A stretch of DNA of 64,000 bases from Heterodontus francisci (taxonomy: Eukaryota): contig NC_090399.1 of NCBI RefSeq assembly GCF_036365525.1, positions 46,532,430 to 46,596,429 on the forward strand, written 5' to 3'. The notes beneath the pieces are model-generated. The model saw only the letters and a program-made list of their open reading frames with translations, did not search any database and was not told the DNA's origin. Of this stretch, positions 2,470 to 62,000 are shown piece by piece; position 1 is the stretch's first letter, and each line of letters opens with the position of its first letter. Position numbers and translations under genes: made by a program.

Positions 2470-2690
2470 CACTTTCTGTGTCAAACTTTTATCCTCCCTC
2501 GCAATTGATGATGTAAGTATGAGTTTTTATCTGATTGGATCATTCACGATATTTGAAAAGTTTATTTATGTCCACAACTCATACTGTCAGGACGTCAGGG
2601 CTGTGTCACATCCTGTTATTCTGATTAGTTTGTTCGTGCCCAATCAGTACGGAGGTTTCTGAGTCAACAGAATAAGTTCTGGTTTAATAC
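2470..2690 (+). promoter_or_regulatory. MHC-type promoter: X1/X2-like box 2497-2516 and Y box CTGATTGG 2531-2538, plus CRE-like GGACGTCA, CCAAT and AP-1 TGAGTCA
   Basis: CCTCGCAATTGATG resembles the X1 box CCTAGCAACAGATG and is followed exactly 20 nt later by CTGATTGG; it is the only unique sequence upstream of the MHC leader exon. Confidence 0.6.
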
Positions 2691-2694
2691 AATC

Positions 2695-38340: not shown

Positions 38341-39984
38341 GTGTTAATCTGTACACAGAGTAATAAACAGTACAGCCGGTAATAATCCACACACCCAGTA
38401 ATGAACTATACACCCAGTCATAAACCATACATCCAGTAATAAACTATACACTGTTAGGATCAGGTGAGAAAGGGGTCTAGGGGTTCCCTCTCAGCCTTTG
38501 TCTGGTTTAACCATAACAGAGTTCAATTTTAAAAACCCCGTGTTTTTGGCTTCCACTGAGTGAATCCTTGTTCACTGCTCTCCAATTGTAAGGCAAATAA
38601 ATCAATCAGACAGGTTTTCTTAGATTTAAACAAGAAAGGTGGAAGTTTATTAAACTCAAACTCTAATGCATTTAAAGACCATGAATAGGTGACACAACCA
38701 CGCGAGCATGCATAAGCGATAAACACACTCGCTAATAGAGACAGAAAAGTGGAAAGAATAAAGGGGAAAAGTTTGAGGCAATAGCTGGGATTTATTTACG
38801 GTCCTTTGAGTTCGATGTAAAGTCTTTGATTGTTTGTAAGTCTTGCCGTTTTGTTGGGGCCCAGTGCAGCTTTAAAACTTGTTTCGATGTAGGAGTCTGT
38901 TTTCTTTTGAGGTTTAAGTGACTTCAGTAGATCTGGAGATTTGAGAGAGAGAGAGTTAGCCAGGAGAGAGGCTTGCTTTTTCCAAGTTCAGTTGCAACCT
39001 CATCAAAACTGTGCTGTGAGCATTTCAAACAAAACCTGGGTCAGCAGGTTGGTCATGTGACTAGCTTTTTTTTTTAACAAACTCCTGCATTTGTGGATTC
39101 TCCATCTAATCAGTCACCCTGGAATGCTGGCTTTCTTACACATTCAATGTCTGGTGATCAAAATGCATTTGGGTTAATTGGATCAGGTAGCAGTTCTATT
39201 GTCTCCAGGCACTGTCTCTTAGTATGCAAATATTTTCCAGCCACTGCTGATCTCTTAAAACAAGTCATTTCTTCATTCCAGCAGCAGTTTAAAATTAATA
39301 TTCACATGATGAAATTAATATGCCTCAATCTTGGTAGGTGGGGTCTTCATGACACCTCCGTACCCAATGGAATGAAATGCGATTTTTAGAAGAGTATTTC
39401 ATTAAAAGGGACTAGAGAGAACAGTAGGTACAGGAACACACACATAGAACATAGAACATAGAACAGTACAGCACAGTACAGGCCCTTCGGCCCACGATAT
39501 TGTGCCGACCCTTTAACCTACTCTAAGATCAAACGACCTACATACCCTTCATTCTGCTATCATCCATGTACCTATCCAAGAGTCGCTTAAATGCCCCTAA
39601 TGTATCTGCTTCTACTACCACCGCTGGCAGTGCATTCCACGCACCCACCACTCTCTGTGTAAAGAACCTACCTCTGATATCTCCCCTAAACTTTCCTCCA
39701 ATCACCTTAAAATTATGCCCCCTGGTGATAGCCCTTTCCGCCCTGGGAAAAGGTCTCTGGCTATCCACTCTATCTATGTCTCTCATCATCTTGTACACCT
39801 CTATCAAGTCACCTCTCATCCTTCTTCGCTCCAAGGAGAAAAGCCCTAGTTCCCTCAACTTTTCTTCATAAGACATGCCCTCCAGTCCAGGCAGCATCCT
39901 GGTAAATCTCCTCTGGACCCTCTCTAAAGCTTCCACATCCTTCCTATAATGAGGCGACCAGAACTGAACACAATATTCAAGATG

Positions 39985-42900
39985 GCTCCTGGGCTGGAAG
40001 CTCCCTAGGAAGCTCCCTTGCTGTTCAACTCTATCCATGGCCATCTGCTCCCATCCCTAACGTTTTCTCCCCCAATCTGCCCTCTTAAACTGTTCAAATT
40101 CCCCTGGCTCTTTAAATCAGTTCATTTTAGCCCTATCTAAAAGTTAACAGTTAGTTTAGTGTATGTTACCTGGGCCCACTGCCCTCCCCCAGCCACACCT
40201 GCTCTTTGTTTTCTCAATGAAATTGATCCGGATGAAACTGACGAGAACAGCTGCCGATACTTTAATCTCCGATCCTGCTGTCTTCACAGTCCAGAGTGTC
40301 TGCAGCCACGGCATGCGGTAAGTCCATTGAGGTGAAGAAGGAGCTGCGGGACCCGAGAGAAGTCCTGTGAAAAGGTGCCCCGAACACCCAAAACATCCAC
40401 GAACGGCCCCCCCCCGGCCGCAACTTCAAAGCGCCCGCGGGAGATGGCTCGGAGAGCATCTGCAGCGCACTGTCGGCAATGCTGCATGCCTTTATTTAAA
40501 CCACTGCAAAAAAAAAACCCTTAGCAAATGTAATCACCTCTAAGTCTGCCAAATGATGCTTCACCTCCCGAAGGACGTAGATGAGCTTTCCGGACGTCGA
40601 TGGTGGGCACTGAGGAAATGGCTTATTACCTGCACCAGATTCCACCCCCCCTCCCCCCCCTTCCACCCCCCCCCACCCCCGTCCCCTTCCCTGCTCCACC
40701 CTCTCAGCTCACCCCCTCACAACCCCGTCCCAGCCCGCCCCCCCCGCACCATCTTCACCCCGCACCCCCTTCCCCTGCACCCCCCCCACCCCCTCCCTCT
40801 ACCCCTCCCCCTTGCATCCCCTCCCCCCACCGGCACCATCCTACACCTGTGTAGGCGCCCCAACAACCCCACTGCCTTGTGGGCGTCTCGGGAGAGACCA
40901 AGGCTAAGGGAGTAAACCCTAACAGAAAATCCGGAGCGGAACCCCGTAGGCGGTCATGTGTCACCTTTGGCATGTTTCCGGCAGTTCCTGCAGCCATACT
41001 GGTGCCAAACGTCGTGTCCTGCACTCCTTTGGACCCCACCAGAAAGGCCGAGAGGGGGGTTTTGACGACTGGGCAACTCTCAACCTCCATAAATTTGCCC
41101 AGGCATGCGCCATGGAGAGGTCACTCCATAGTTGCCTCACAGCGACTGAAACAACACGGAAGGCAGCAGTTACGGGTTATAAGTCCAGATAAATTGGCGT
41201 AGAAACTGGGCGCCACGGGTTGCCTTTGTCGGTGGGAGAGGTCATTGCACCTCACTGGACAGCTACCGCCCGCCTCAAACCGGGCAGCCCCCGGTCAATA
41301 AGGTTCTGTCCCGCCACAGTCTGCCTGCTTCAATGGGTGCTTGGAGCTCAGGGTCATTGCCCGAAAGGTGGACTGATACACCGCACCAAACAACATGAAA
41401 AAAGGAAAGAAGGTACCAGCCCTTCGCTTTGCAAGCTGGAACGTCAGAACTATGTGTCCTGGCCTGTCGGAAGACCTTACACAAATCAACGATTCTCGGA
41501 AGACCGCCATCATTAACAACGAGCTCAGTAGACTCAATGTGGACATTGCAGCACTTCAGGAGACTCGCCTCCCCGCGAGTGGCTCTCTAGCAGAGCAAGA
41601 CTACACCTTCTTCTGGCAGGGCAGGGATCCTGAAGAACCAAGACAGCATGGAGTGGGCTTCGCCATCAGAAACTCCTTGCTCAGCATGATAGAGCCTCCC
41701 TCAAATGGCTCGGAACGCATACTGTCCATCCGACTGCTCACCACCTCTGGTCCAGTACACCTACTCAGCATCTATGCTCCAACACTCTGTTCCGCACCTG
41801 AAGCTAAAGACCAGTTCTATGAACAACTCCATAACATCATTAGCAGCATCCCCAACACCGAACACCTATTCCTGCTGGGGGACTTTAATGCCAGGGTTGG
41901 GGCCGACCATGACTCATGGCCCTCCTGCCTTGGGCGCTATGGCGTTGGAAGGATGAATGAGAACGGGCAGAGACTGCTTGAGTTGTGTACCTATCATAAC
42001 CTCTGCATCACCAACTCGTTCTTTCACACTAAACCCTGTCACCAGGTTTCATGGAGGCACCCAAGATCACGTCGTTGGCACCAGCTAGACCTCATTCTCA
42101 CAAGGCGAGCCGCCTTAAACAGTGTTCAAATCACACGCAGCTTCCACAGTGCGGACTGCGACACCGACCACTCCCTGGTGTGCAGCAAGGTTAGACTCAG
42201 ACCAAAGAAGTTGCATCATTCCAAGCAGAAGGGCCACCCGCGCATCAACACGAGCAGAATTTCTCACCCACAGCTGTTACAAAAATTTCTAAATTCACTT
42301 GTAACAGCCCTTCAAAACACTCCCACAGGGGATGCTGAGACCAAGTGGGCCCACATCAGAGACGCCATCTATGAGTCAGCTTTGACCACCTACGGCAAAA
42401 GTGCGAAGAGAAATGCAGACTGGTTTCAATCTCATAATGAAGAGCTGGAACCTGTCATAGCCGCTAAGCGCATTGCACTTTTGAACTACAAGAAAGCCCC
42501 CAGCGATTTAACATCCGCCGCACTTAAAGCAGCCAGAAGTACTGCACAAAGAACAGCTAGGCGTTGCGCAAACGACTACTGGCAACACCTATGCAGCCAT
42601 ATTCAGCTGGCCTCAGACACCGGAAACATCAGAGGAATGTATGATGGCATGAAGAGAGCTCTTGGGCCAACCATCAAAAAGATCACCCCCCTCAAATCTA
42701 AATCGGGGGACATAATCACTGACCAACGCAAACAGATGGACCGCTGGGTTGAGCACTACCTAGAACTGTACTCCAGGGAGAATGCTGTCACGGAGACTGC
42801 CCTCAATGCAGCCCAGCCTCTACCAGTCATGGATGAGCTGGACATACAGCCAACCAAATCGGAACTCAGTGATGCCATTGATTCCCTAGCCAGCGGAAAA

Positions 42901-44638
42901 GCCCCTGGGAAGGACAGCATTACCCCTGAAATAATCAAGAGTGCCAAGCCTGCTATACTCTCAGCACTACATGAACTGCTATGCCTGTGCTGGGACGAGG
43001 GAGCAGTACCCCAGGACATGCGCGATGCCAACATCATCACCCTCTATAAAAACAAAGGTGACCGCGGTGACTGCAACAACTACCGTGGAATCTCTCTGCT
43101 CAGCATAGTGGGGAAAGTCTTTGCTCGAGTCGCTCTGAACAGGCTCCAGAAGCTGGCCGAGCGCGTCTACCCTGAGGCACAGTGTGGCTTTCGTGCAGAG
43201 AGATCGACTATTGACATGCTGTTCTCCCTTCGTCAGATACAGGAGAAATGCCGTGAACAACAGATGCCCCTCTACATTGCTTTCATTGATCTCACCAAAG
43301 CCTTTGACCTCGTCAGCAGACGTGGTCTCTTCAGATTACTAGAAAAGATCGGATGTCCACCAAAGCTACTAAGTATCATCACCTCATTCCATGACAATAT
43401 GAAAGGCACAATTCAACATGGTGGCTCCTCATCAGAGCCCTTTCCTATCCTGAGTGGTGTGAAACAGGGCTGTGTTCTCGCACCCACACTTTTTGGGATT
43501 TTCTTCTCCCTGCTGCTTTCACATGCATTCAAATCCTCTGAAGAAGGAATTTTCCTCCACACAAGATCAGGGGGCAGGTTGTTCAACCTTGCCCGTCTAA
43601 GAGCGAAGTCCAAAGTACGGAAAGTCCTCATCAGAGAACTCCTCTTTGCTGACGATGCTGCTTTAACATCTCACACTGAAGAATGCCTGCAGAGTCTCAT
43701 CGACAGGTTTGCGTCTGCCTGCAATGAATTTGGCCTAACCATCAGCCTCAAGAAAACGAACATCATGGGGCAGGATGTCAGAAATGCTCCATCCATCAAT
43801 ATTGGCGACCACGCTCTGGAAGTGGTTCAAGAGTTCACCTACCTAGGCTCAACTATCACCAGTAACCTGTCTCTAGATGCAGAAATCAACAAGCGCATGG
43901 GTAAGGCTTCCACTGCTATGTTCAGACTGGCCAAGAGAGTGTGGGAAAATGGCGCACTGACACGGAACACAAAAGTCCGAGTGTATCAGGCCTGTGTCCT
44001 CAGTACCTTGCTCTACGGCAGCGAGGCCTGGACAACGTATGCCAGCCAAGAGCGACGTCTCAATTCATTCCATCTTCGCTGCCTTCGGAGAATACTTGGC
44101 ATCAGGTGGCAGGACTATATCTCCAACACAGAAGTCCTTGAAGCGGCCAACATCCCCAGCTTATACACACTACTGAGTCAGCGGCGCTTGAGATGGCTTG
44201 GCCATGTGAGCCGCATGGAAGATGGCAGGATCCCCAAAGACACATTGTACAGCGAGCTCGCCACTGGTATCAGACCCACCGGCCGTCCATGTCTCCGTTA
44301 TAAAGACGTCTGCAAACGCGACATGAAATCGTGTGACATTGATCACAAGTCGTGGGAGTCAGTTGCCAGCATTCGCCAGAGCTGGCGGGCAGCCATAAAG
44401 ACAGGGCTAAATTGTGGCGAGTCGAAGAGACTTAGTAGTTGGCAGGAAAAAAGACAGAGGCGCAAGGGGAGAGCCAACTGTGCAACAGCCCCAACAAACA
44501 AATTTCTCTGCAGCACCTGTGGAAGAGCCTGTCACTCCAGAATTGGCCTTTATAGCCACTCCAGGCGCTGCTTTACAAACCACTGACCACCTCCAGGCGC
44601 GTATCCATTGTCTCTCGAGATAAGGAGGCCCAAAAGAA
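39985..44638 (+). mobile_element. RTE-clade LINE, full length, with ~870 bp of extra 5' sequence including a C-rich tract
   Basis: Bounded by the two halves of the CR1; single long ORF; short 3' UTR with AAGAAG tail; no clean TSD. Confidence 0.93.
41395..44586 (+). CDS. RTE ORF: APE endonuclease, reverse transcriptase and C-terminal C2H2 zinc finger (1063 aa, uninterrupted)
   Basis: SWNVRT, LQETR, IYAPT, LGDFNARVG, TDH; GVKQGCVLAP, LFADD; CSTCGRACHSRIGLYSHSRRC. Confidence 0.97.
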   Translation: MKKGKKVPALRFASWNVRTMCPGLSEDLTQINDSRKTAIINNELSRLNVDIAALQETRLPASGSLAEQDYTFFWQGRDPEEPRQHGVGFAIRNSLLSMIEPPSNGSERILSIRLLTTSGPVHLLSIYAPTLCSAPEAKDQFYEQLHNIISSIPNTEHLFLLGDFNARVGADHDSWPSCLGRYGVGRMNENGQRLLELCTYHNLCITNSFFHTKPCHQVSWRHPRSRRWHQLDLILTRRAALNSVQITRSFHSADCDTDHSLVCSKVRLRPKKLHHSKQKGHPRINTSRISHPQLLQKFLNSLVTALQNTPTGDAETKWAHIRDAIYESALTTYGKSAKRNADWFQSHNEELEPVIAAKRIALLNYKKAPSDLTSAALKAARSTAQRTARRCANDYWQHLCSHIQLASDTGNIRGMYDGMKRALGPTIKKITPLKSKSGDIITDQRKQMDRWVEHYLELYSRENAVTETALNAAQPLPVMDELDIQPTKSELSDAIDSLASGKAPGKDSITPEIIKSAKPAILSALHELLCLCWDEGAVPQDMRDANIITLYKNKGDRGDCNNYRGISLLSIVGKVFARVALNRLQKLAERVYPEAQCGFRAERSTIDMLFSLRQIQEKCREQQMPLYIAFIDLTKAFDLVSRRGLFRLLEKIGCPPKLLSIITSFHDNMKGTIQHGGSSSEPFPILSGVKQGCVLAPTLFGIFFSLLLSHAFKSSEEGIFLHTRSGGRLFNLARLRAKSKVRKVLIRELLFADDAALTSHTEECLQSLIDRFASACNEFGLTISLKKTNIMGQDVRNAPSINIGDHALEVVQEFTYLGSTITSNLSLDAEINKRMGKASTAMFRLAKRVWENGALTRNTKVRVYQACVLSTLLYGSEAWTTYASQERRLNSFHLRCLRRILGIRWQDYISNTEVLEAANIPSLYTLLSQRRLRWLGHVSRMEDGRIPKDTLYSELATGIRPTGRPCLRYKDVCKRDMKSCDIDHKSWESVASIRQSWRAAIKTGLNCGESKRLSSWQEKRQRRKGRANCATAPTNKFLCSTCGRACHSRIGLYSHSRRCFTNH

Positions 44639-47343: not shown

Positions 47344-50300
47344 GAGCCACTGGGAGCTGGGAAAGAAGCTTCACTGTGAGCTGGATGGCGATCCTGAACG
47401 CAGCATCAGCCTGGAGGACACTGATATCCAGGAGGCCGTGCAGGCTGTGGGCTGGCTCACTCGCCAGGGTCGCAACACCCGCCGGACACCTCCCCCCCTT
47501 CCTCCCCCACCCCCTCCTCCCTCGCACCCCCTTCCCCCACCCTCTGCACCCCCTTCCCCCACCCCCTCCCCCTCACACCCCCTTCCCAGCTCACACCCCG
47601 CATCCCCTTCCCCCCATCCCTTCCCCTCTGCACCCCCTTCCTCCACCCACTGCACCCCCTTCCCAGCTCCGCCCTTGCACCCCATTACCCCCACCTCCTC
47701 CCCCCACACCCCCTTCCTCTGCACCCCCTCCCCTCCCCCCTGTATCCCCCCTTCCCAGCTCCACCTCCCCCCACACCCTTCCCACTCGCACCTCTTCTCC
47801 CCCAACCCCTTCCCCCACTCCCTCTCCCAGCTTCCCCCGCATCCCCTTCCCCCCACACCCCGTCCCCCCTTCCCTCTCCATCCATGAAATCACACAGCTT
47901 ACCTGTTCAGGCCCCTGCTCAGGGATAGGAGCTAGCAACCCCACTGCATTGTGGGCATCTCGGGAGAGACCAAGGCTAAGGGAGTAAACACGAAAAGAAA
48001 ATCAGGAGTGGAACCCCGAAGGCAGTCATGTGTCACCTTTGGCATGTTTCCGGCAGTTCCTGCTGCCATACTGGTGCTCTGTACTTCTTTGGACCCCACC
48101 AGCAAGGCAGTGTGGAAGGTTTTGAAGCTTGAGCAACTCACAACCTCCATAGATCCGCCCAAGCATGCGCTATGGAGAGGTCACTCCATAGTCGCCTCAC
48201 AGCGACCAAAACAACATGGAAGGCAGCAGTTATGGGTAATAAGTCCAGCTCAATTACCATAGAGATTGGGTGCCACAGGTTGTCTTTGTCAGTGGGAGAG
48301 GTCATCGCATCTCACTGGACAGCTACTGCCCGCCTCAAACCGAGCAGCTCCCGGTCAGTAAGGTTCTGTCCCACCACAGTCCACCTGCTTCAATGGGTGC
48401 TTGGATCTCAGGGTCATTGCCTGACAAGTGGACTGTAACACCGCACCAAACAGCACGAAAAAGGAAAGATGGTACCAGCCCTTCGTTTTGCAAGCTGGAA
48501 AGTCAGAACTATGTGTCCTGGCCTGTCGGAAGACCTTACACAAATCAATGATTCTCAGAAGACCACCATCATTAACAACGAACTCAGTAGACTCAATGTG
48601 AACACTGCAGCACTTCAGGAGACTCGCCTCCCTGCGAGCGGATCTCTAAGAGAGCAAGAATACACCTACTTCTGGCAGGGTAGGGATCCTGAAGAACCAA
48701 GACAGCATGGAGTGGGCTTCGCCATCAGAAAATCTTTGCTCAACATGATAGAGCCACCTTCAAATGGCTCGGAATGCATACTGTCCATCTGACTGTTCAC
48801 CGCCACTGGTCCAGTACACCTACTCAGCATCTATGCTCCAACACTCTGCTCCCCACCTGAAGCTAAAGACCAGTTATACGAGGAACTCCATAATATCATT
48901 AGTACCATCCCCAATACCGAACACCTGATCCTGCTGGGAGACTTTAATGCCAGGGTTGGGGCCGACCATGACTCAAGGCCCTCCTGCCTTGGGCGCTATG
49001 GCATTGGAAGGATGAATGAGAATGGACAGAGACTGCTGGAGTTGTGTACCTATCATAACCTCTCCATCACCAACTCGTTCTTTCATCCTAAACCCTGTCA
49101 CCAGGTTTTCTGGAGACACCCAGCTGGACCTCATCATCACAAGGCGAGCCTCTATAAACAGTGTCCAAATCACACGCAGCTTCCACAGTGCGGACTGCAA
49201 CACCGACCACTCCCTGGTGTGTAGCAAGGTTAGACTCAAACCAAAGAAGCTGCATCACTCCAAGCAGAAGGGCCGCCCGCGCATTGACACTGACAGAATT
49301 TCTTATCCACAGCTGTTACATAAGTTTCTAAATTCACTTGAAAAAGCCCTTCAAAACACTCCTACAGGGGATGCAGAGACCAAGTGGGCCCACATCAGAG
49401 ACGCCATCTATGACTCAGCAATGACCACCTATGGCAAACGTGAGAAGCGGAATGCAGACTAATTTCAATCACACTTTGAAGAGCTGGAACCTGCAATGGC
49501 CACTAAGCGCACTGCACTGTTGAAATACAAGAAAGCCCCCAGTGAGTTAACATCCATAGCACTTAAAGCAGCCAGTACACTGCACAAAGAACAGCCAGGC
49601 GCTGTGCAAATGACTACTGGCAACATCTATGCAGTCGTATTCAGCTGGCCTCTGACACCGGAAACATCAGAGGAATGTACGATGGCATTAAGAGAGCTTT
49701 TGGACCAACTATCAAGAAGATCGCCCCCCTCAAATCTAAATCGGGGACACAATCACTGACCAACGCAAGCAAATGGACCGCTGGGTGGAGCACTACCTAG
49801 AACTGTACTCCAGGGAAAATGTTGTCACTGATACCACCCTCAATGCAGCCCAGTCCCTGCCAGTCATGAATGAGCTGGACGAACAGCCAACAAAATCGGA
49901 ACTCAGTGAAGCCATTGATTCTCTAGCCAGTGGAAAAGCCCCTGGGAAGGACGGCATTACTCCTGAAATAATCAAGAGTGCCAAGCCTGCTATACTTTCA
50001 GCACTCCATGAACTGCTTTGCTTGTGCTGGGATAAGGGAGCAGTATCACAGGACATGCGCAATGCCAATATCATCACCCTCTCTCAGAACAAGGGTGACC
50101 ACGGTGACTGCAACAACTACCGTGGAATCTCCCTGCTCAGCATAGTGGGGAAAGTCTTCGCTCGAGTAATTTTAAACAGGCTCCAGAGGCTGGCTAAGCA
50201 TGTCTACCCTGAGGCACAGTGTGGCTTTCGAGCAGAGAGATCCACCATTGACATGCTGTTCTCCCTTCGCCAGCTACAGGAGAAATGCCGTGAACAATAG

Positions 50301-51688
50301 ATGCCCCTCTACGTTGCTTTCATTGATCTCACCAAAGCTTTTGACCTCATCAGCAGACGTGGTCTCTTCAGACTACTAGCAAAGATCGGATGTCCACCAA
50401 AGTTACTAAGTATCATCACCTCATTCCATGATAATATGAAAGGCACAATTCAGCATAGCGGCGCCTCATCAGACCCCTTTCCTATCCTGAGTGGCATAAA
50501 ACAGGGCTGTGTTGTCGCACCTACACTGTTTGGGATCTTCTTCTCCCTGCTGCTCTCACATGCGTTCAAGTCTTCAGAAGAAAGAATTTTCCTCCACACA
50601 AGATCAGTCGGCAGGTTGTTCAACCTTGCCCGTCTAAGAGTGAAGACCAAAGTATGGAAAATCCTCATCAGGGAACTCCTTTTTGCTGACGATGCTGCAT
50701 TAAGATCTCACACTGAAGAGTGTCTGCAGAGGCTCATTGACAGGATTGCGGCTGCCTGCAAAGAATTTGGCCTAACCATCAGCCTCAAGGAAACAAACAT
50801 CATGGAACAGGACGTCAGAAATGCCCCATCCATCAATATTCGCGACCATGCTCTGGAAGTGGTTCAAGAGTTCACCTACCTAGGCTCCACTATCACCAGT
50901 AACCTGTCTCTCGATGCAGAAATCAATGAGCGCATGGGAAAGGCTTCCACTGCTATGTCCAGACTGGCCAAGAGGGTGTGGGAAAATGGCGCACTGACAC
51001 GGAGCACAAAAGTCCGAGTGTATCAAGCCTGTGTCCTCAGTACCTTGCTCTACGGCAGCAAGGCCTGGACAATGCATGTCAGCCAAGAGCGACGTCTCAA
51101 TTCATTCCATCTTCGCTGCCTCTGGAGAATCCTTGGCATCAGGTGGAAGGACTGTATCTCCAGCATAGAAGTCCTCGAGGCAGCTAACATCCCCAGCATA
51201 TACACCCTACTGAGCCAGCGGCGCTTGTGATGGCTTGGCATGTGAGTCACATGGAAGATGGCAGGATCCCCAAGGACACTTTGTACAGTAAGCTCGTCAC
51301 TGGTATCAGACCCGCTGGCCGTCCGTGTCTCCTCTTTAAAGATGTCTGCAAACGCGCCATGAAGTCCTGTGACATTGACTGCAAGTCATGGGAGTCAGGT
51401 GCCAGTGATCGCCAGAGCTGGCGGACAACCATAAAGGCGGGGTTAAAGAGTGGCGAGATGAAGAGACTTAGCTGTTGGTCAGAAAAAAGTGTGAAGCGCA
51501 AGGAGAGAGCCAACTGTGTAACAGCCCCGACAACCAATTTTATCTGCAGTGCCTGTGGAAGAGTCTGTCACTCTTGAATTCACCTTTATAGCCACTCCAG
51601 GTGCTGCTCCACAAACCACTGACCACCTCCAGGTGCTTACCCATTGTCTCTCGAGGCAAGGAGGCCAAAGAAGAAGAAGAAGATGAAG
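47344..51688 (+). mobile_element. Second RTE copy, decayed (stops and frameshifts), inserted in the Gypsy gag zinc knuckle
   Basis: Collinear with copy 1; 10-bp TSD ATTACAGTGG (47334-47343 / 51689-51698); (GAA)n tail. Confidence 0.95.
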
Positions 51689-53278
51689 ATTACAGTGGAA
51701 GCACACAGGTCTCCGAGTCTCACTCATACCTACAGCACTATCCTTTTTGGCTGGAGGAGGGCTCTCTGTGTCTCCTGCTTTTCCTTCTCTCACAGGACAG
51801 GACTGCTTGGGCTTCTATCTCCTTCCCACCCTTTGTCCTTTTCGGATTTGTGGGGCTGATTACGAAATGTTTTCCCTGGCTAACCGACTTATAAATGAGA
51901 GCAGACTCATCAGCCAGAACTGTGGCTTTCTGGGCTCTATGAACCTTCTGTTCCTCTACATGTATCTTTATGGAGAGTGGGAAAGAATATTAAAATTCCT
52001 TGAGCAAAATTATCGCTGAGGTCCGCTTTAAAAACCCTCAGCCCCTGGTCAAAAGCCAGCTGCTTATTTCTCTCAAATGCCAGGTAAGTTTGATAGTTCT
52101 GAACTTTTGGTGATAGGCTTTCGGTACTAACTCATTTGCCCTGAAGATAGCATTTTTTGTCAGTTTATAATTGGATAAACTCTCATCTGGTAACAGGGAA
52201 TAAACGTCATGAGCTTTTTCTGTCAGCTTGCTTTGTAGCAACAGAGTCCAAGTCTCAGCTGGCCGCTTTAACTGCCTTGCCAGTTTTTGAAATGATACAA
52301 AAAATGCTTCCATGTGTCCCTCACTGGATTTTGGAATTAATTGGGAAAGTTTTAACAGTTCTGTACCTAGGCCTGCATTACAATCCTCCATATTGGCCGT
52401 GCTTTTACTGGGTTATTCTGTGATCCCTAGTTAACTCAAGCCGCCTCAGCTCTTTCCCTTCACATTCCTTATGGAAGACTCTCTCTCTCTTTCCTCTCTC
52501 TTTTTCTTGACGTTCCTTTTGAAAGGTTCTTTCTCTCTCTCCTCTCACTTTTCTTTCTCCTGTCTCAGTTTCTCTCTGTCCGACCTCTCTCTTTCCCTTT
52601 CTCTTTCCTCACTTTCATTCTGAAAGGCTCTTTCTTTCACTTGTCTCCCTCTTTCTCGTTCTTCAAATTCAAGTTTCCTCTATTCCAATGGTATCTTTGC
52701 TCGCAATACCCTGTCAGAGTCTATTTCTAACTCTGTTTCTGCTTCTTCAGATTCAAGGGAAAAATGGTTGGTCAGTAGTCTTAGGTGTTCAGACTTTCTA
52801 GCCTTGATGCGGTCAGTGATCCCACACTGCTCAGCCATTTTTCTCAACTCCTCCGAAGACAGTGCTTTTAACTTATCCCAAGTGATATCACCCTGGCTTG
52901 GGGCACTAAAGGCTTCAGTCGTAGACACATTAATATTCTAGCACACACAACCACAAAAAAACCTGTATTGAAATCTTTTCTCTTTTTAAAAAAAAAATGG
53001 GATCAATTTTACTTCCCACTTCCAATTTCCTTGTTGTCTGTGGTCCAATCTGGGATGCTCGCCCCCAAATTTCTGTTACGATCAGGTGAGGAAGGGGTCT
53101 GGGGGCTTCCCTCTCAGCCTTTGCCTGTTTTAACCATAACATGGTATAATTTGAAAGACACTGTGATTTTAGTGCCCCCTCAGTGAATTCTTGCTCACTC
53201 CTCTCCAATTGTAAGGCAGAGAAATCAACCAGACAGGTTTTCTTAGATTTAAACAAGAAAGGCGGAAGTTTATTAACC

Positions 53279-53861
53279 TGTTGGATCCCATTAATTGCAC
53301 AAAGAGAGACGAAGTCCAACTGTAGCTTTAAGAAACTTTATTGCAGTACTTCTTGGTTACATCATCAGCAAAGCAAATTACAACAACACCTTTGCCTCCA
53401 CCTTTCTCCTCCGTGGTGGTGCAAGGAAATCAAGCCTTTCTTATAGTTCTTCATACACATCAGTGACACCCCCTTTAAGTTCCCAATTGGTTTACAAACT
53501 CTGCAGTTTCTTGGTGTCAGGGCCTGATTGGGGTCCTGCCTTGTCAATGTGTTTTTAACTCCTTACTTCATCTTCTCATGGCTCTTATCTGTTTTTGAAC
53601 TGTAGTACAATAGGCTTTTATACAGCTGTCCTATGAATCTTGCTTGCTAGTCTACTCCTACTGATAAGCTGTCTGTGCATCCCTGAAGCTATGAAGTCAT
53701 TCTGATAAGCTGTCCCTACAGCACTGAAAGAACTACTATTAATTTCTGATAAGCTGCATGCTGAAGCTCTAAAAGTTAGTTTGTTAGTAGTACATGATTG
53801 ATTAATTATTTCACCTTAAATGTCCCCATGTTATTCTGTTCTCGAAAATTCTGTTCTCACA
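53279..53861 (-). repeat. ERV 3' LTR (583 bp), with PPT AAAGGGGGGAT at ~53862-53872
   Basis: TG..CA termini; minus-strand TATAAAA near 53615 and AATAAA near 53340. Confidence 0.96.
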
Positions 53862-53977
53862 ATCCCCCCTTTGATTCTTCAAAACACTTTTAAGAATCAT
53901 TCCCTTTATCCCACCTGGGTGCCTTTAATGGTCTCTACTAGTCTAGAAACAGCCTTAAACACCCGAAGGGGTCACAC

Positions 53978-55241
53978 TCAATACGTTGCCTGCTTGTGCC
54001 ACAGGAGGGGCCCGCGGGAGCTCTGTAAAGGCATAAGTTTTGCAGGGGCTTCAGTTACTTGTTTACAACAACACTTAATAAGCAAAAACGTCAAATACAG
54101 AATTACAATCATCACTAAAAATAAGACCAAGCCCTGTACCCTATCGAGCCCAGCCAACTGGTCGCCCAACCCCACAGGGTGGAAGCTGGGGATTGTTTTA
54201 GCTTTTCCATCTCCTTTCGGATGTGTGCTGCCAGATCAGAAATTTCTTCGGAGCTATCCGGAATGTAAGTACAGCACTCGGGTCCTATCAGGGCACATGT
54301 ACCCCCCTTTTCTGCTAGGACGAAATCTAAGGCCATTCGGTTTTGGAGTGCTACGGTGCAGATAGCTACCATTTCTGCATTTATTTTATCAAGGGCTTTG
54401 GCGGTGTCATTGGCCACTTTTTCTAGGACCGAAGCAATATTGATGAATCCCCTGGCTAACTTATCAGTCCCATACCACGGGACCATGATTGAGAAAAATC
54501 TCTCAGACTCCATGATTGCTCGTTTCTTTCTTTGTCCCTGAGGTGGCTCATACAGGGAGGTCAAATGATGGATATAGGGTGTAACATAACCTAAGTAGCA
54601 TGATCCTGTCCAGAATTGCTCTAACCAGGGATAGGCTTTGTTGCCGCAAATAAAATAAGTACCGTTGTTGGCAATGGGGTTTCTAGCTGTTTCGGGGTCC
54701 ACCTGCCGGGTGGCGTCCCGATCCTTTAGTTCTTCAAGGTCCTGCAGGAGAATAGATTTAGCGCCTGGAGTCACATTGAAATAGTGGGAGCAGTTACTTC
54801 GTCCCATTTCTCGTCCACCTTTTTGTTCTCTAACTAGGCATTTGAATCCCTGTGGTCTTCCCACGCCTGAGGTGTTAGTAAGGACCAAGAATGGAGGTTC
54901 TCGGGTCCGATTGTAATGGGGCCAAACCACCCCATGAAGGCTCGTCTGTTCCGAGACCCTCTTGCGATCCATTCGGCCGACTCTGATGCATTAAACGGAA
55001 TGGGACGTAAGGGGATGCCTCCCCTGGAGTGGATAGGCACGTGTGCACATATCCAACGGCGGGAGATGTTAGCTTCTTTGGCATAAGTATAGGTCATGTA
55101 AAGGAAAGAGTTAACATGTAATTCTCTGAACACTCGATTAGTTTCCCCATGTGGATAGGTTTGGTTAGACAAAAATGAGCAACTACTTAAAATACTTGCA
55201 AAGAAGATAATAGAAATTTTAAAGATGGCAGCAATTAACAA
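53978..55241 (-). pseudogene. env: ERV env (gamma-type), frameshifted
   Basis: Signal peptide, degenerate CWIC (RWIC), furin site RKKR, ISD LQNRMALDFVLAEKGGTCALIGPECC (CX6CC), TM helix. Confidence 0.93.
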
Positions 55242-55249
55242 TTCAGCGT

Positions 55250-58200
55250 TTAATCACGGGTCGCTCGTTTTACGTGAGAGGCTTGTATCCGGGCTTTCTT
55301 TCCTTCGACTTTAACTGCTGACTGGGTGGTCAGCAGCACTTGGAAAGGTCCCTCCCACTTGGCGCCCAAAGGTACTTTGTGTATTTTCTTCATGCAGACC
55401 CAGATTCCCAGGACGATGTCGTGCCCTCCTTCTGGTGGGTCACCCCAAGCTGCCGATACCTGTGAGGAAGCAGAACTGACAGCATTTGTTAAGTTCTGGC
55501 TATATTCTAGTAAAGCATCACTCATAAAGTGACTACCAGCTTTACGCAGATCAATTGTTCCCGGTAAAGACATGGGTCTCCTGTTATTACTTCAAATGGG
55601 CTCAAGCCTGTAGTTCTGTTCGGGATCGCTCTGAAACTACACAGAACTATCGGCAACGCCTGAGGCCACTTTATTCCTTCCTGGTGATACTTGGATAGTC
55701 GCTGCTTTAGCGTCTGATTCATTCGTTCCACTTGGCCTGATGACTGGGGATGATGAGGACAATGTAAATCCCATGTAATGTTCAGTAGGCGACTGACTTC
55801 CTGACAGACCGCGCCTGTGAAATGAGTTCCTTGGTCAGAATCAATGCTGACCGGTACTCCCCATCTGGGGATGTAATCCTTCGCGGTGTGATTGGCCATG
55901 GCTTTTCTAGCTGGGATGGCCTCTACCCATCTAGAAAATTTGTCGACGATGACTAAAATGCCGGTGTATCCCTGACAAGGTGGGAGAGTGATATAGTCAA
56001 CTTGTAAGCACTGGAATGGGCCGGCTTAAGCAGGGGCTCTTAGTTGAGGCATTATCGTAGTGGGTCCTGGATTGTTTTCCTGACAGACCACACAGCAGTC
56101 AGCTACCAGCTGTGTGTGTTTTTTAAACCCTCGACCCCACCAGCTGTTCTGGAACCGTGCAGTCATCTGTTGCGGGGCCAGGTGTCCCCAGGAGTGAATT
56201 TGTTGGGATAAAAAGGGCATCAGCGCCTGTGGTGCGACGGGTTTCTCAGTGTCCCTTTGTCTCCAGATGCCTCGTCACATATCTTCATCCCTGCTTCTAT
56301 CCAGGTCCATTTTTCATCTTTGGAACATTCACTCTGCATCACTTGTAGGTCTTGTGTCAGACGGGACGTATTCAGTTTACATATTTGCGTCCGTGCATCC
56401 CGGGGATCACCTTGCGAGGCGGCTTCCTTGGCTGCCTTGTCGGCTAGGGCATTCCCCTTTGCCTCTAAGGTGTTGTCTTTCGTATGGGCTTTACATTTCA
56501 AAATGGATACCTTTTCTGGCAATTGCATCGCCTCCAGTAAGTCTCGGACCTCTTTCCCATTTCGAATAGGTGTACCAGCAGCAGTGAGAAATCCTCTTTT
56601 TCGCCACAACTGACCAAAGTCGTGAGCGACTCCAAAAGCATACCGTGAGTCGGTGTAAATATTAGCTGTCTTCCCCTCTGCTATTCGACATGCTTCCGAC
56701 AGGGCTCGCAGTTCGGCTTGTTGGGCCGATGTCCCTGAAGGCAGGCATCCCACTTCCACAACTTCATGTAAGGTTGTAACTGCCCATCCTGCTTTCCGTG
56801 TACCGTTGTCAACAAAGGATGAATCGTCTGTGAAAAGGATTAAATCTGGGTCGAGCAATGCTTCCTCTGCTGCTAGGATTACCTTCTCTGTTTCCTCCAT
56901 AATCTCCACACAATCATGTTCTTCTTCCTCCCTCTCTTCAGGCCACGGGAGCATAGTCGCCAGATTTACCGGGCTGGCCCGGACAATGTGGAGATTGGGA
57001 GTCTCTAGGACTGTTGTCCATCGGGTCCATCTAGCTGCTGTCACTTGGGATACTCGGTTCATAGATAGCAATGTGTGGACTGTGTGCGGACACTTAACAG
57101 TTAACTTTTGATCTAATACCAGACCTGCAGTAGCCATTACTGTTTGACATGTAGCTTCCATAGTTCTTAAACAACTGCCCCATCCTAGGGCGACGGTGTC
57201 CAGTCTTTTCAAATATTATCCAATAGGTCTCTGTTTGTCCCCATGTTCCTGTGTCAGTATGGCAGTCATATATCCCTCTTTTTCATGTACAAACAGGGTA
57301 AACGGTTTCCCGTTGTCGGGGATTCCCAGGGCTGGCGCTGAGCAAAGAGCCCTCTTTAAGTTTTCAAAAGCTTCTTGTTGTTCTTTGGTTAGGGTAACTG
57401 ATTCTTTAGAGGCCCGCTTTCCCTTTAGGAGATCGGTTAATGGTTGAGCCAGCTGTGTGTAGGAGTCGATCCAGTTTCTGTTGAAGTTACACAACCCCAA
57501 AAAGGACCTAAGCTCCTGGATAGTGGTGGGCAGTTTGGCAGCTCGAATGGTGGCGATTCTGTCCTGGGTGAGTTCTCTCTTTCCTTTCGAAATCTTTTGT
57601 CCCAGGTACACGACCTCTCCTTGTGCCATCTGCGCTTTGTCAATACTGGCCTTATGTCCTCTCTGATGAAGGTGGTCCAGCAGGGTACGCAGATCTTGTT
57701 TGTGTTGTTCTTCTGTCTCAGAGGCTAACAGGAGGTCGTCCATGTACTGAATGACCGTGGAGTACATGGAAGGTTACTCCCTCAAATGGTTTGGTAGGGC
57801 CATATGAAATACTGTGGGGCTGTTGTGGAAACCCTGCGGCAGGCGAGTCCAGGTGTACTGTTGTTGTTGTACAGTAAAGGCGAATCACGGTTGGACTTCG
57901 GGTGCCAGTGGCACCGACCAAAATCCATCGGCCATATCGATAACAGAGAAGCATTCGTGTTCTGGCTTCAGGGCATTGAATACCATAGAGGGGTCAGCTA
58001 CCAGAGGGGCCTTTTGATCAATACACTGGTTAGCCTTTCTATAGTCGACAGTAAGCCGCCAGGTCCCGTTTGATTTCAGTACTGGCCACACAGGGCTGTT
58101 TAAGGTACTGTGTGTTTTAACCAGCATGCCTCGCTCCTCTGGCTGTCTAATTACGGGTAGGATTCCTGCAATAGATGTTTGACTGATGGGATATTGTTTA

Positions 58201-58694
58201 GTACAGGGCGGAGCAGATCCTGTAAACGTTGCCGGTTCCATTTGAAGTAGCCCACAATCGTTCTTATCCTGGACCCATATTGGGTGCTCCCTCAGCTGCT
58301 CTTTCTTCAGACTTCTGATAGACCAAGTTACCTGGCCGCCTTTGAAACGCAACGAGGAGTTCAGCTGAGTGAGAACGTTCATACCGAGGAGTGCTTGGTC
58401 CACCGGACCTACCCAGACCGGTGTTATCAATTCGTGCGGACCAAGACTGATGCGTACGGGCTGGGTCCTCTTAATTACCAACCCATTGTCCCCAGCTGCG
58501 TCAGCTCTTTTAGTCTTACTGTCCATCGGTAGGGAGTTTCCGTATTGTTGAGGTAGACACATTAATTCAGCTCCAGTATCTAATAAGAAGTCAATGTCTT
58601 GATCGCCCACCCTCGCAGTTACATACAATCCATCTTTTCTATTTTCTACTAGCGCTAGGAGAGGTACCGAAAGGGCGAGGGAGGGCTCCTCTAG
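55250..58694 (-). pseudogene. pol: ERV pro-pol (protease, RT, tether, RNase H, integrase) with several stops and frameshifts
   Basis: LLDTGA; NSPVWPV..WRLTVDYR, LPQGFHNSP, YMDD; TSAQQAEL, YTDSRYAFG; HHCC, DSDQGTHF, SSGQVERMN, WEGPFQVLL. Confidence 0.95.
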
Positions 58695-60316
58695 TTTTTT
58701 GTCGCATCAATTAAGGAGGACATCTCCTTCTGTTGCTGGGGCGTCAACCATTTGAACTTCTCAAAGAGGTCGTTGGCATCAGTGGAGGGAGCTGGTTTGG
58801 GTGCCAGGTTGCGTCCTTGGCGTCCTCTTCCTTGTCCTCTCGCTCTACACGCCTTAGCCCAATGGCCTTCCTTCCCGCAGTTATAATAGGGACCGGGTCG
58901 CCTAACTTGCTCTTTGTCAGGTTCTTTCGGTACTGGATTCATCTGCACGGCTTGAAGCTTGACTCCCATATCCCTGTCCAGCTGAGCACATCTGTCTATT
59001 AACTCTGAGTATTTCACTCTTACCGCGTCCCACCCCGGTAGGGTGGCCTTCAGTATTTTAGACAGTTCTGGCTTTAGTCCATCAACAAAAGCAGATTTTA
59101 AGGGTCCAAAACCGGTGTCGTCCAGATCCTCTGGAGTAGGGTCTACGATCCCCAAGTATTCCACCCAGGTGGACCTAAACCGCTCTTCATGCTCCCACAC
59201 GTCCTCGGAGTTCTTCTGCTGACAGGATGCAACTTTGATCCAATCCGTTTTTACAGGACAAAACCCTCGCAACCACGTGTTAATCGCAACCCATCCAGCA
59301 TCAAGTAGCTGTTCATCTGCACCCAAAGCAATTTGGACCTCTCTCCTTAGCTTTCGACCCGCTCGCCCAGGCACCATTGCAGCTAGAATCTGTACCCCGT
59401 CCCATGGGTGGAGATCGTAAATTCCCTTCAATTGTTCCAGCTGCTCCCACATTTTCAGACCCCCTTTCTTCGGGTCAGGCAATCTTGTGGACCACTTGTC
59501 GATTTTCTCAGGGGAAGCCGGGACGTGTGTCCAGTACGCGTTGTGCTTGGCCGTGGTGACCTCGCTACCGTTCACAGTCTTCTTTTCCATCTTGACCTTA
59601 ATGCGTTTCTGTTTAAGGGGAGCTAGTCACGGAAATGGTAACCCATCATCATTGTCACTTTCTTCACTGGAAGACTCGGCTAGGCCTGCTTCACGCAGTT
59701 GTATCTTCCGTTGTTCCATTTGTAACGACTTCAAACTCGGATACAAGTTAGTTGGAGGTGGTAGTTGGCTGGGTTCGCAGAGCTGTCCCAGTTCCTTCGG
59801 TTGGGTTGTCTGCTGGTCTTGTAGTTGTTTTTTAAGCTCTTTAATTTCAATCTGTAGCCTTTCCGTTTCAGATTGTTTTTCGGCCACTAGCTTTTCCTTC
59901 GCAAGCTTTTCAATTTCTAACTGTTCCAATTTCAGTTTTTCCTTTGTCAGTTGTTCGCAGACCGCCTTCAATTGATCCTTTGCACTTGTTAGATCGCGAT
60001 CACATTGGGCTTGTCGCATAATCTCATAGCGTTGCCGAATCTGGCCCATTACGGCTAGGGACCATTGGGTCCGTTCTTTATCCTTTAAACGGGTTGTTTT
60101 TCCCCAGACTCTCTTTATATCTTCCAGGGACCACTGTCCCGTGGAGGTGCCATATTTTTGCCCAATTTCGGTGTATATTTTAGCCAGATTAAACTGTTGC
60201 TCTATATATTCTTTCAACTGCCGAAGTATTTCATCTTCGGGAACGTCAGGTGGGGCCCGCCCACCTTTGACAGCAGCTGGTAACTGTCGGTTGCCTTCGT
60301 CTGTCATCTTATCCAT
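58691..60316 (-). pseudogene. gag: ERV gag with one in-frame TGA at 59627-59629
   Basis: ORFs 59627-60316 and 58691-59590 share a frame; coiled coil, LYPSL, capsid-like region, knuckle YYNCGKEGHWAKAC with the first Cys lost. Confidence 0.9.
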
Positions 60317-60579
60317 TCAGGTAGGGAAGTAGGTCTCGAGCCGTCAGGCTTTTCGTCAAATAGGTATTTCGTCAAATACCGCCAAGTTAGACGTCTAGAA
60401 AGGGGGTCTCGAGCCGCACAAGAAAGGGTATTTCTGTCAAATACCGCCAGGTTCGGGATCGCGTGGCAGGGGACCGAAATTTAGACGATGACCAAGGACT
60501 TTTGACACAAAGAGGAGTCCTTACCTCTGGGGGCGCCGATAGGTCCGATGTCTGTGGCTTCAGTCTTTATCCTCCAGCG

Positions 60580-60597
60580 ATCCTGCCGACTACGCCA
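60580..60597 (-). promoter_or_regulatory. Primer binding site for tRNA-Ser
   Basis: TGGCGTAGTCGGCAGGAT is complementary to the vertebrate tRNA-Ser 3' end ATCCTGCCGACTACG-CCA and lies 3 nt from the 5' LTR. Confidence 0.92.
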
Positions 60598-60600
60598 AGT

Positions 60601-61192
60601 TGTTGGATCCCATTAGTTGCACAAAGAGAGACGACGTCCGACTGTAGCTTTAAGAAACTTTATTGCAATACTTCTTGGTTACATCATCAGCAAAGCAAAT
60701 TACAACATCACCTTTGCCTCCACCTTTCTCCTCCGTGGTGGTGAAAGGAAATCAAGCCTTTCTTATAGTTCTTCATACACATCAGTGACACCCCCTTTAA
60801 GTTCCCAATTGGTTTACAAACTCTGCAGTTTCTTGGTGTCAGGGCCTGATTGGGGTCCTGCCTTGTCAATGTGTTTTTAACTTCTTACTTCATTTTCTCA
60901 TGGCTCTTATCTGTTTTTGAACTGTAGTACAATAGGCTTTTATACAGCTGTCCTATGAATCTTGCTGGCTAGTCTACTCCTTCTACTCCTACTGATAAGC
61001 TGTCTGTGCATCCCTGAAGCTATGAAGTCATTCTGATAAGCTGTCCCTGCAGCACTGAAAGAACTACTATTAATTTCTGATAAGCTGCATGCTGAAGCTC
61101 TAAAAGTTAGTTTGTTAGTAGTACATGATTGATTAATTATTTCACCTTAAATGTCCCCATGTTATTCTGTTCTCGAAAATTCTGTTCTCACA
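60601..61192 (-). repeat. ERV 5' LTR (592 bp)
   Basis: About 10 substitutions and one 9-bp duplication (TCTACTCCT) relative to the 3' LTR, by manual count. Confidence 0.96.
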
Positions 61193-62000
61193 TAACCTTA
61201 AACTCGAATTCAGTTAACAACTATGAATACGTAATGCAGCCACACTAGCATGCACATGCGATAAACATACACGCAGATAGAGACAGAAAAGTGGAAAGAA
61301 TAAAAGGAAAACGTTTGAGGCATTAGCTGGGATTTATTGTGGTCCTTTGAGTTCGATGCAGAGTCCTTGATCGCCAGTAAGTCATGCCATTTCAATGGGG
61401 CCCAGTGCACGCTTTAAAACTTGTTTCAATGTAGGAGTCTTTTCTATCTTGAGGTTTAAGTGACTTCAATGGATCTGGAGAGAGAGAGAGAGAGAGAGAG
61501 AGAGCTAGCCAGGAGAGAGAGGCTCTCTTCTTCCAAGTTCAGTTTCAATCTGACAAACTGTCCTGTGCGCAGTTCAAAACCAAAAACCTGGGCCAACAGG
61601 TTGGTCATGTGACTAGCTGTTTTAACAGACTCCTGCATTTGGGATTCTCCATCTTAGCAGACACCCTGTAATGCTGGCTTTCTTACACATTCAGCATCTG
61701 GTGATCAAAATTCATTTGTTTTAATTGGATCAGGGAGCCATTCAATTGTTTCCAGGCATTGTCTCTCAGTATGTAAATGTTTTTCAGCCACTGCTGATCT
61801 CTTTAAACAAGTCATTTCTTCATACCAGCCACTGTTTAAAATTAATGTTCCTATGACAAATTAATATGCCTCATTCTTGACAGGTGGGGTCTTCATGACA
61901 ACACCCAGTGATAAGCCACACACCCAGGGTGGGCATAGTATCAGGTACAAGGGTCAGGTGGGCTATATGTAGGGTGCAAGGGTCAGATGGGCATAGTATC

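Follow-up and report, generated by a model that had tools for sequence, protein, structure and literature searches.

A decayed Heterodontus francisci provirus of a multi-copy family in a fish retrovirus lineage allied to class I, with a likely −1 frameshift at the end of gag

Structure of the provirus

Analysis of a 64,000-nucleotide (nt) stretch of the Heterodontus francisci genome (NCBI RefSeq assembly GCF_036365525.1, contig NC_090399.1, positions 46,532,430 to 46,596,429 of the forward strand; hereafter the window) showed a decayed provirus of 7914 nt on the minus strand (61192-53279). The provirus probably belongs to a multi-copy, likely shark, family within a coherent lineage of fish retroviruses that the trees place as sister to the gamma- and epsilonretroviruses (class I), and its protease and polymerase were likely made by a −1 frameshift at the end of gag. 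The main interest lies in this likely −1 recoding within a lineage allied to class I. All features listed in an earlier note on this DNA were present on the minus strand; that list was without the gag-pro junction, which has since been found as a −1 offset behind A-AAA-AAC and a stop. The family was represented by 40 scored rows, namely the window provirus and 39 copies at 94-95% identity. The features of the provirus are as follows.

61193..61197: 5-bp target-site duplication, 5' side of the provirus; flanks the provirus and is single in the uninterrupted paralogous repeat
60601..61192, minus strand: 5' long terminal repeat (LTR), 592 nt, TGT...ACA
60580..60597, minus strand: primer-binding site, tRNA-Ser(AGA), 3 nt past the LTR; present in 36/40 copies
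58691..60316, minus strand: gag, with one in-frame stop at 59629; non-myristoylated N-terminus with a heptad-rich stretch, two-domain capsid, one zinc knuckle and a C-terminal helix
58691..58700, minus strand: gag-pro junction; A-AAA-AAC (58700-58694) in gag phase, gag stop directly after, protease in the −1 frame
56220..58706, minus strand: pro-pol in a single frame; protease (DTG), reverse transcriptase (RT; YMDD here), connection and RNase H; in-frame stops at 57887, 57776 and 57218
55250..56274, minus strand: integrase; HHCC zinc domain, core, and C-terminal domain of the murine leukaemia virus (MLV) type with a GPF motif; a stop at 56028 and two frame changes
53978..55253, minus strand: env, gamma type, with two frame changes; surface subunit (SU) with a CxxC-type site, RKKR furin site, immunosuppressive domain (ISD), CX6CC and membrane anchor
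53863..53879, minus strand: polypurine tract
53279..53861, minus strand: 3' LTR, 583 nt
53274..53278: 5-bp target-site duplication, 3' side of the provirus

The succession LTR, primer-binding site, gag, pro, pol, env, polypurine tract and LTR, the target duplication and the order protease, RT, RNase H and integrase place the element among the endogenous retroviruses (ERVs) of the Retroviridae. Pfam matches in the provirus were zf-CCHC, protease, RVT_1, RNase_H, rve, MLVIN_C (PF18697) and TLV_coat (PF00429), and the RT, RNase H and ISD-CX6CC motifs described earlier were found in the translations. The integrase tail carries WEGPFQV and abuts env, and the Pfam search gave no dUTPase match in the provirus. 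The earlier description of a non-myristoylated, coiled-coil Gag held: Gly is absent from position 2-3, and there is a heptad stretch rich in K, E and Q (judged by eye, without a coiled-coil program). The tRNA-Ser assignment was likewise borne out, the primer site (60597-60580) being complementary to the 3' end of the host tRNA-Ser(AGA) genes at 4/4 loci scanned. No Gag capsid family was found by Pfam or PDB sequence search, and only fold comparison gave a match. The predicted structure of the unbroken C-terminal part of Gag (pLDDT 83) was a two-domain retroviral capsid, with the MLV capsid as best match (Foldseek E 1.2e-5; VIA Z 10.8, rmsd 7.2, 205 aligned), and its C-terminal domain gave Z 10.6, rmsd 2.9 and 87 aligned.

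The two LTRs were identical at 573/583 aligned sites (10 differences, with one 9-nt gap; Kimura two-parameter distance 0.0174), in agreement with the figure of about 98% given earlier. The provirus interrupts a host repeat, the reported 5-bp duplication flanks both of its ends, and the uninterrupted copy of the repeat at 38458-38878 has the target site once. The window copy is dead, with 5 in-frame stops (1 in gag, 3 in pro-RT, 1 in integrase) and 4 frame changes (integrase and env); the first Cys of the Gag zinc knuckle and the first Cys of the SU CxxC-type site were both lost, and no host function is demonstrable for it.

The gag-pro junction

Gag ends at A-AAA-AAC and a stop, and protease, RT and RNase H continue in the −1 frame. 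The heptamer and stop were present in 33 of the 36 copies in which both anchors were found, and the offset from the zinc knuckle to DTG was of the −1 type in 16/21 copies and in frame in 1/21. A junction with 1-6 extra bases had 0 matches in the genome, and the pattern with a different base before the heptamer had 4. The open pro frame had no Met before DTG in 22/25 copies, and contigs from two other organisms crossed the junction without a gap there (X6 record 15 and X8 record 22). By its sequence, the heptamer has the X-XXY-YYZ form of a programmed −1 frameshift site, in phase within the gag/pro overlap. AAAAAAC and GGGAAAC are given in PMC3835772 among the gag-pro slip sites of mouse mammary tumour virus (MMTV), bovine leukaemia virus (BLV), human T-cell leukaemia virus (HTLV) and Mason-Pfizer monkey virus; MMTV, BLV and HTLV share the A-AAA-AAC type of gag end with the provirus, and the heptamer was also seen in locus L087. 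These viruses, however, belong to class II, depend on a further shift at pro-pol and carry a stem-loop or pseudoknot 3' of the site; no such structure was found in the provirus.

Among non-CpG variants common to at least 3 copies, 58/79 (73%) of those in pol were at third positions vs 204/562 singletons (Fisher p 6e-10), while the third-position share of the same class of shared variants was 30/65 in gag and 30/58 in env. This pattern indicates purifying selection on pol along shared branches, and the third-position excess therefore suggests that genomes with this junction made working Pol.

A similar junction was indicated outside the shark family. From 82 matches, 19 Gag homologues were retained (E<=1e-8, match past the zinc knuckle, fused P0069 left out), with fathead minnow and catshark among the named hosts. 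A total of 8 ended in KN, GN or LN, the dipeptides encoded by A-AAA-AAC, G-GGA-AAC and U-UUA-AAC, and 3 more had one of these one residue before the end, against a background of 1.2% and 5/315 proteins in the controls. In the P0009 family, Gag ends in QEKN (P0424/P0432) while the fused P0022 reads QEKKLI into protease.

Outgroups and some other elements showed in-frame stops at this place. An in-frame UAG was present at the junction in snakehead retrovirus (SnRV), walleye dermal sarcoma virus (WDSV), Moloney MLV (MoMLV), L100, L102 and L104. The cod and whale-shark elements in the supplement of Xu et al. 2018 are in frame through UGA-C (authors' consensus, compared by eye), which is described as a readthrough context in PMC13517186, and the cod Gag frame is backed by protein P0415. 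The unnamed retrovirus L100/L101, which branches between SnRV and the fish clade, has an in-frame UAG followed by CAA-UUA (L100:2915), a readthrough context of the tobacco-mosaic type.

The proposed course of expression would begin with tRNA-Ser priming reverse transcription. Most ribosomes would stop after A-AAA-AAC and yield Gag, and a minority would slip back one base into pro-pol. Retroviral Env is made from spliced RNA, and by this general rule the same would apply here. Integrase would cut with a 5-bp, less often a 4-bp, stagger, and the family would have spread with a working Pol, many copies losing env later (kept in 13/39).

Phylogenetic analysis of Pol

Reference loci were taken from IMG/VR and named by exact look-up (SnRV, WDSV, MoMLV, reticuloendotheliosis virus (REV), RD114, koala retrovirus and three foamy viruses), and walleye epidermal hyperplasia virus (WEHV) 1 was labelled from a matching named hit. 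To reduce redundancy among the roughly 220 proteins and 40 loci, sets of 70, 37 and 40 rows were picked for the trees, class III being represented by avian, turtle and unnamed proteins.

Results showed that every Pol domain (RT, connection, RNase H and integrase) had the same nearest relatives, and the clade with teleost elements was recovered in RT (99-100/99), integrase (98/97), connection (83/84) and RNase H (83). In the RT tree, the gamma- and epsilonretroviruses formed a clade excluding this lineage (97/96). The single-frame RT-RNase H tree (593 columns, 40 rows) supported the fish clade at 100/100, class I at 100/99 and both together at 100/98, with a ladder of foamy viruses, ERV-L-like rows, SnRV, L100/L102/L104 and P0013, and then the fish clade as sister of class I. 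This order was also obtained from the four-domain matrix (29-row node 89/74; with P0013 100/99) and from the connection domain. With Ty3-like outgroups in a quick RT tree that held no named lokiretrovirus row, the fish clade was not the first split. These trees agree with the deep branching first proposed, and place the lineage outside class I by nesting in RT and RT-RNase H; integrase alone nests it inside.

In approximately unbiased (AU) tests, the sister-of-class-I topology was not rejected for RT (p-AU 0.198, 0.238 and 0.569) or RNase H (p 0.444), and class I excluding the fish clade was borderline, nearly rejected, for integrase (p 0.051). Joining the fish clade to the ERV-L-like (avian and unnamed) rows was rejected for RT (p 0.032), as was fish clade plus epsilon rows (p 0.031). 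Integrase also rejected fish clade plus epsilon (p 0.002), in part because those rows do not form a single clade in the integrase tree.

The RT motifs had earlier been taken as resembling class III. They recurred in SnRV and in avian and turtle class III-like proteins, with a near form in foamy viruses, and for that reason are best read as ancestral; the RNase H motif of the provirus was also found in WDSV and WEHV1. Likewise NSPVWPV, WRLTVDYR, the 5-bp duplication and the lack of myristoylation, all traits of ‘class III’ kind, are likely ancestral states later changed in class I, and not signs of a crossover.

Relatives of the provirus

The RNase H and RT regions retrieved the same top group of carp-cluster, Coilia, Alosa, Astyanax and unnamed proteins, the RT search being run with the relative P0002 as query. 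The nearest named relatives were from Heterodontus, Scyliorhinus and Heptranchias, and the best named matches outside the clade were class I. The earlier proposal of a shark lineage was too narrow, as the lineage has teleost members (carp, grenadier anchovy, alewife and cavefish) and close relatives in the data of Xu et al. 2018 (PMC6001957). In S2 Data of that paper, compared by eye, the same lineage was recognised as es_lu_ERV3, le_oc_ERV2, ga_mo_ERV4, cy_ca_ERV4 and si_gr_ERV4 (pike, gar, cod, carp and Sinocyclocheilus); the hosts pike, gar, cod and carp, and the whale shark named above, are our own expansions of the abbreviated labels. Protease and RT of this group resembled the provirus throughout, Gag resembled es_lu_ERV3, and clade member P0009 was near-identical to cy_ca_ERV4 over the compared passage. 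S2 Fig of that paper has these elements at the bottom of the clade Huo block (label order only). They are RT-tree tips near clade Huo, without a genome description in the parts consulted, whereas in the present analysis they come out beside class I as its sister, and the gag-pro junction is of the −1 type. A literature search of partial coverage found no description of the position or the frameshift of the lineage, and the ‘Pol-LGE.1’ clade of bioRxiv 2021.11.23.469661 may be the same lineage.

Env was nearest to other shark Envs (55% and 45%) and then to a hagfish protein (34%), with a transmembrane subunit (TM) clade at 98/96, and the teleost-type member L098 had a related Env (29%). Env exchange within the lineage is possible because shark Envs, the hagfish protein and the teleost-type L098 all carry a related Env; such exchange is described as common in fish ERVs (bioRxiv 2021.11.23.469661). 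The Myxine glutinosa proteins P0295-P0297 have gamma-type Env, and the grouping of P0295 with the shark Envs (98/96) suggests an ERV env in jawless fish.

The search for teleost junction DNA in metagenomes yielded a single long member of the clade, L098, which has no protease motif, and the fragment L099; no clade member was found in the prokaryote genomes scanned. The cluster of P0009, a teleost-type clade member, comprised 3937 sequences, and the many Pro-Pol frames of the full 1166 aa among them suggest that the expansion is young.

Copies of the family and age

In the 6.0-Gb genome, 304 candidates were found by RT search, and at least 80 copies are present (80 exact junction 21-mers; reversed control 0). 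Of the 39 copies, 36 retain gag, 19 retain integrase and 13 retain env. The full ISD-CX6CC pattern was found in 10/40 copies, most others being without env, and the first Cys of the Gag zinc knuckle was present in 24 of the 29 readable copies. The RT active site was YVDD in 23/40 copies and YMDD in 9/40, a split that may be a recurrent CpG change instead of a subfamily trait.

Both LTRs were located in 23 of the 40 rows, on which the target-duplication counts rest. An exact 5-bp duplication was found in 13/23, an exact 4-bp duplication in 5/23 (L002, L014, L015, L018 and L029) and no exact match in 5/23. Mixed 4- and 5-bp duplications in one family weaken duplication length as a class marker here.

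LTR divergence in the family ranged from 0.0095 to 0.0456 with a median of 0.026 (23 copies). For the window provirus, the divergence of 1.7% corresponds to about 4 million years at 2.2e-9 (mammalian rate) and about 40 million years at 2.2e-10, the shark rate assumed in PMC4422223. The age of integration is therefore 4-40 million years depending on rate, and the fairly recent integration first suggested is not established. Sequence related to the family was found in sequencing runs of three further organisms; in a search there for an orthologous insertion, no listed contig from organisms B or C spans the LTR-flank junction, and in organism A one contig spans it with only 27 letters on one side (threshold 31).

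Comparison with known retroviruses

The provirus resembles class I (gamma: MoMLV, REV; epsilon: WDSV, WEHV) in having pro and pol in one frame, the RNase H motif, a GPY/F-type integrase tail (PF18697, WEGPFQV), an MLV-like capsid, a gamma-type Env (PF00429) and one zinc knuckle as in MLV. It differs in lying outside the class I clade, in having the −1 offset in place of a single gag-pro frame with an in-frame gag stop for readthrough, and in lacking a myristoylation signal; the family duplication is mostly 5 bp, whereas 4 bp is given as the ERV1 rule in PMC6523648. With SnRV (L054) it shares the RT motifs WRLT(V/I)DYR and QYTWTRLPQGFH, one zinc knuckle and a coiled-coil-like Gag stretch. SnRV differs in forming a separate deeper branch, in its in-frame UAG, in an RNase H-region identity of 26% and in an Env without a match to the provirus TM. 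The likeness to lokiretroviruses proposed earlier fails on Env, which in lokiretroviruses resembles fusion proteins of negative-strand RNA viruses (PMC8922424) and in the provirus is of the gamma TLV_coat type.

Alternative explanations

Several observations weigh against a frameshifting sister lineage of class I. The integrase tree nests the fish clade inside class I. Free RT-only trees join foamy viruses to class I (50/90 and 93/80) and place the fish clade weakly on the snakehead/class III (Huo) side. The class III sampling consisted of avian, turtle and unnamed proteins and had no named ERV-L, ERV-S, XtERV-S, SSSV or lokiretrovirus sequence, and the 13 class II loci obtained by a pattern scan were drawn into gamma in the RT tree (long branch) and were not used for placement. 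At the junction, where a programmed site would have a stimulatory stem-loop or pseudoknot 5-9 nt downstream, folding against shuffled sequences gave no stable structure 3' of the heptamer (minimum free energy z −0.6 to +1.95). The one hairpin seen was weak and began 1 nt past the heptamer, a crude pseudoknot scan gave only weak 5+4 bp candidates, and the Rfam search for stimulatory RNA gave one sub-threshold chance match. The Gag rows were picked after their ends had been seen, so that the enrichment is no blind test, the teleost evidence consists of protein ends and not DNA, and 8/19 do not fit.

Recombination at the level of this locus was rejected, as all Pol domains share their nearest relatives. 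The earlier note had inferred a recombinant or deep-branching lineage. A recombinant in which RT is of class III, and RNase H and integrase of class I, was unsupported: sister-of-class-I was not rejected by RT or RNase H and was borderline in integrase. An ancient version, in which the ancestor of the fish clade joined an RT of the snakehead or clade Huo type to class I RNase H and integrase, and the old mosaic became common to shark and teleost members, is considered unlikely. It would account for the free RT trees, which hold the clade off class I and with SnRV and class III (50/90 and 83/51), and for the integrase tree, in which the clade and P0013 join class I (99/98) and a snakehead/class III grouping is rejected (p 0.044), with class I without the clade at the borderline value above. 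The Huo-block position in S2 Fig and the repeated acquisition of RNase H and integrase described in a review (PMC8922424) point the same way. However, longer alignments place the clade with class I, and the RT tests do not reject the sister position. RNase H, whose own tree nests the clade with weak support among epsilon-like rows, does not reject class I without the clade. The sister order is also that of the connection domain, and the capsid fold, as modelled, is likewise nearest MLV. Even a true mosaic would be no new kind, because class III Pol with class I TM has already been published for XtERV-S (PMC8278194); SnRV-related ERVs with gamma-type Env have also been published (bioRxiv 2021.11.23.469661).

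The −1 offset could instead be a founder defect, or Pol could come from spliced RNA, the copies spreading with Pol supplied otherwise. The missing stimulatory structure and the cod relative, in frame through UGA at the same place, would fit this. It is nevertheless improbable given the purifying selection on pol along shared branches, the canonical and correctly phased heptamer, the signs of a junction of this type in a teleost family (P0022 and P0424), the gap-free junction in contigs of two other organisms and the lack of a Met start in 22/25 copies.

That the provirus is simply an epsilon-like fish ERV (clade Mu) whose Env is of gamma type, a kind described from many fish and amphibians, is by now largely refuted and highly improbable. 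RNase H does fall among epsilon-like rows and shares the WDSV motif, the best named matches outside the clade are class I, and published ERVs related to epsilon include ones that carry a gamma-type Env (bioRxiv 2021.11.23.469661), but class I excludes the clade in RT and RT-RNase H, grouping with epsilon was rejected by RT and, with the stated reservation, by integrase, and the single zinc knuckle, −1 junction and mostly 5-bp duplication speak against it. A class III ERV-L/ERV-S element with a captured class I env, like frog XtERV-S (PMC8278194), has an equally slight chance: XtERV-S shares the tRNA-Ser primer, the TGT/ACA ends, the 5-bp duplication (mixed with 4 bp in the present family), the lack of myristoylation and a gamma-type TM, but it is described with no zinc knuckle, a dUTPase, YIDD, an in-frame UGA and an ERV-L-related Pol, whereas the provirus family has a knuckle, YVDD or YMDD, an MLV-type integrase tail, the −1 junction, no dUTPase match after integrase (where ERV-L and XtERV-S have one and ERV-S does not) and an RT that rejects the ERV-L-like rows.

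Implications of the lineage

The chances are about even for a wider form of the preferred frameshifting sister lineage, namely a genus-level lineage of sharks and bony fish, sister of all gamma- and epsilonretroviruses, in which the −1 gag-pro frameshift evolved independently of class II and in which frameshift and UGA readthrough coexist at a homologous junction. If so, the lineage would record a switch between readthrough and frameshift, with the heptamer in shark- and cyprinid-type members and UGA readthrough in the cod type. Frameshifting is placed on the alpha, beta, delta and lentivirus side, while gamma- and epsilonretroviruses and SnRV as a rule use readthrough, the translational strategy being called a global marker (PMC1224870, PMC13517186). 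A frameshifting lineage beside class I with an apparent readthrough member would break this deep-marker rule, and the pair would give a natural system for asking how one recoding mode replaces another. The position of the lineage would also date class I traits, with the integrase tail, gamma-type Env and capsid type coming first, and the 4-bp duplication, myristoylation and changed RT motifs later.

Other features of the window

The repeat around the provirus (53080-53273 and 61198-61420) starts with TGTTA and is 82-86% alike to the uninterrupted copy at 38458-38878. It is likely the LTR of a Gypsy-type element, and a Gag-like frame lies nearby (52680-52937, minus strand). The window also contained an unbroken 1069-codon frame at 41377-44586 on the plus strand, whose endonuclease and RT features are those of a non-LTR retrotransposon and look RTE-like by eye. 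About 7040 nt downstream, at 48074-51538, is a decayed second copy, 84-93% alike. Minisatellites with repeat units of 33 nt and 39 nt form long arrays at 29-1630 and 2566-5070.

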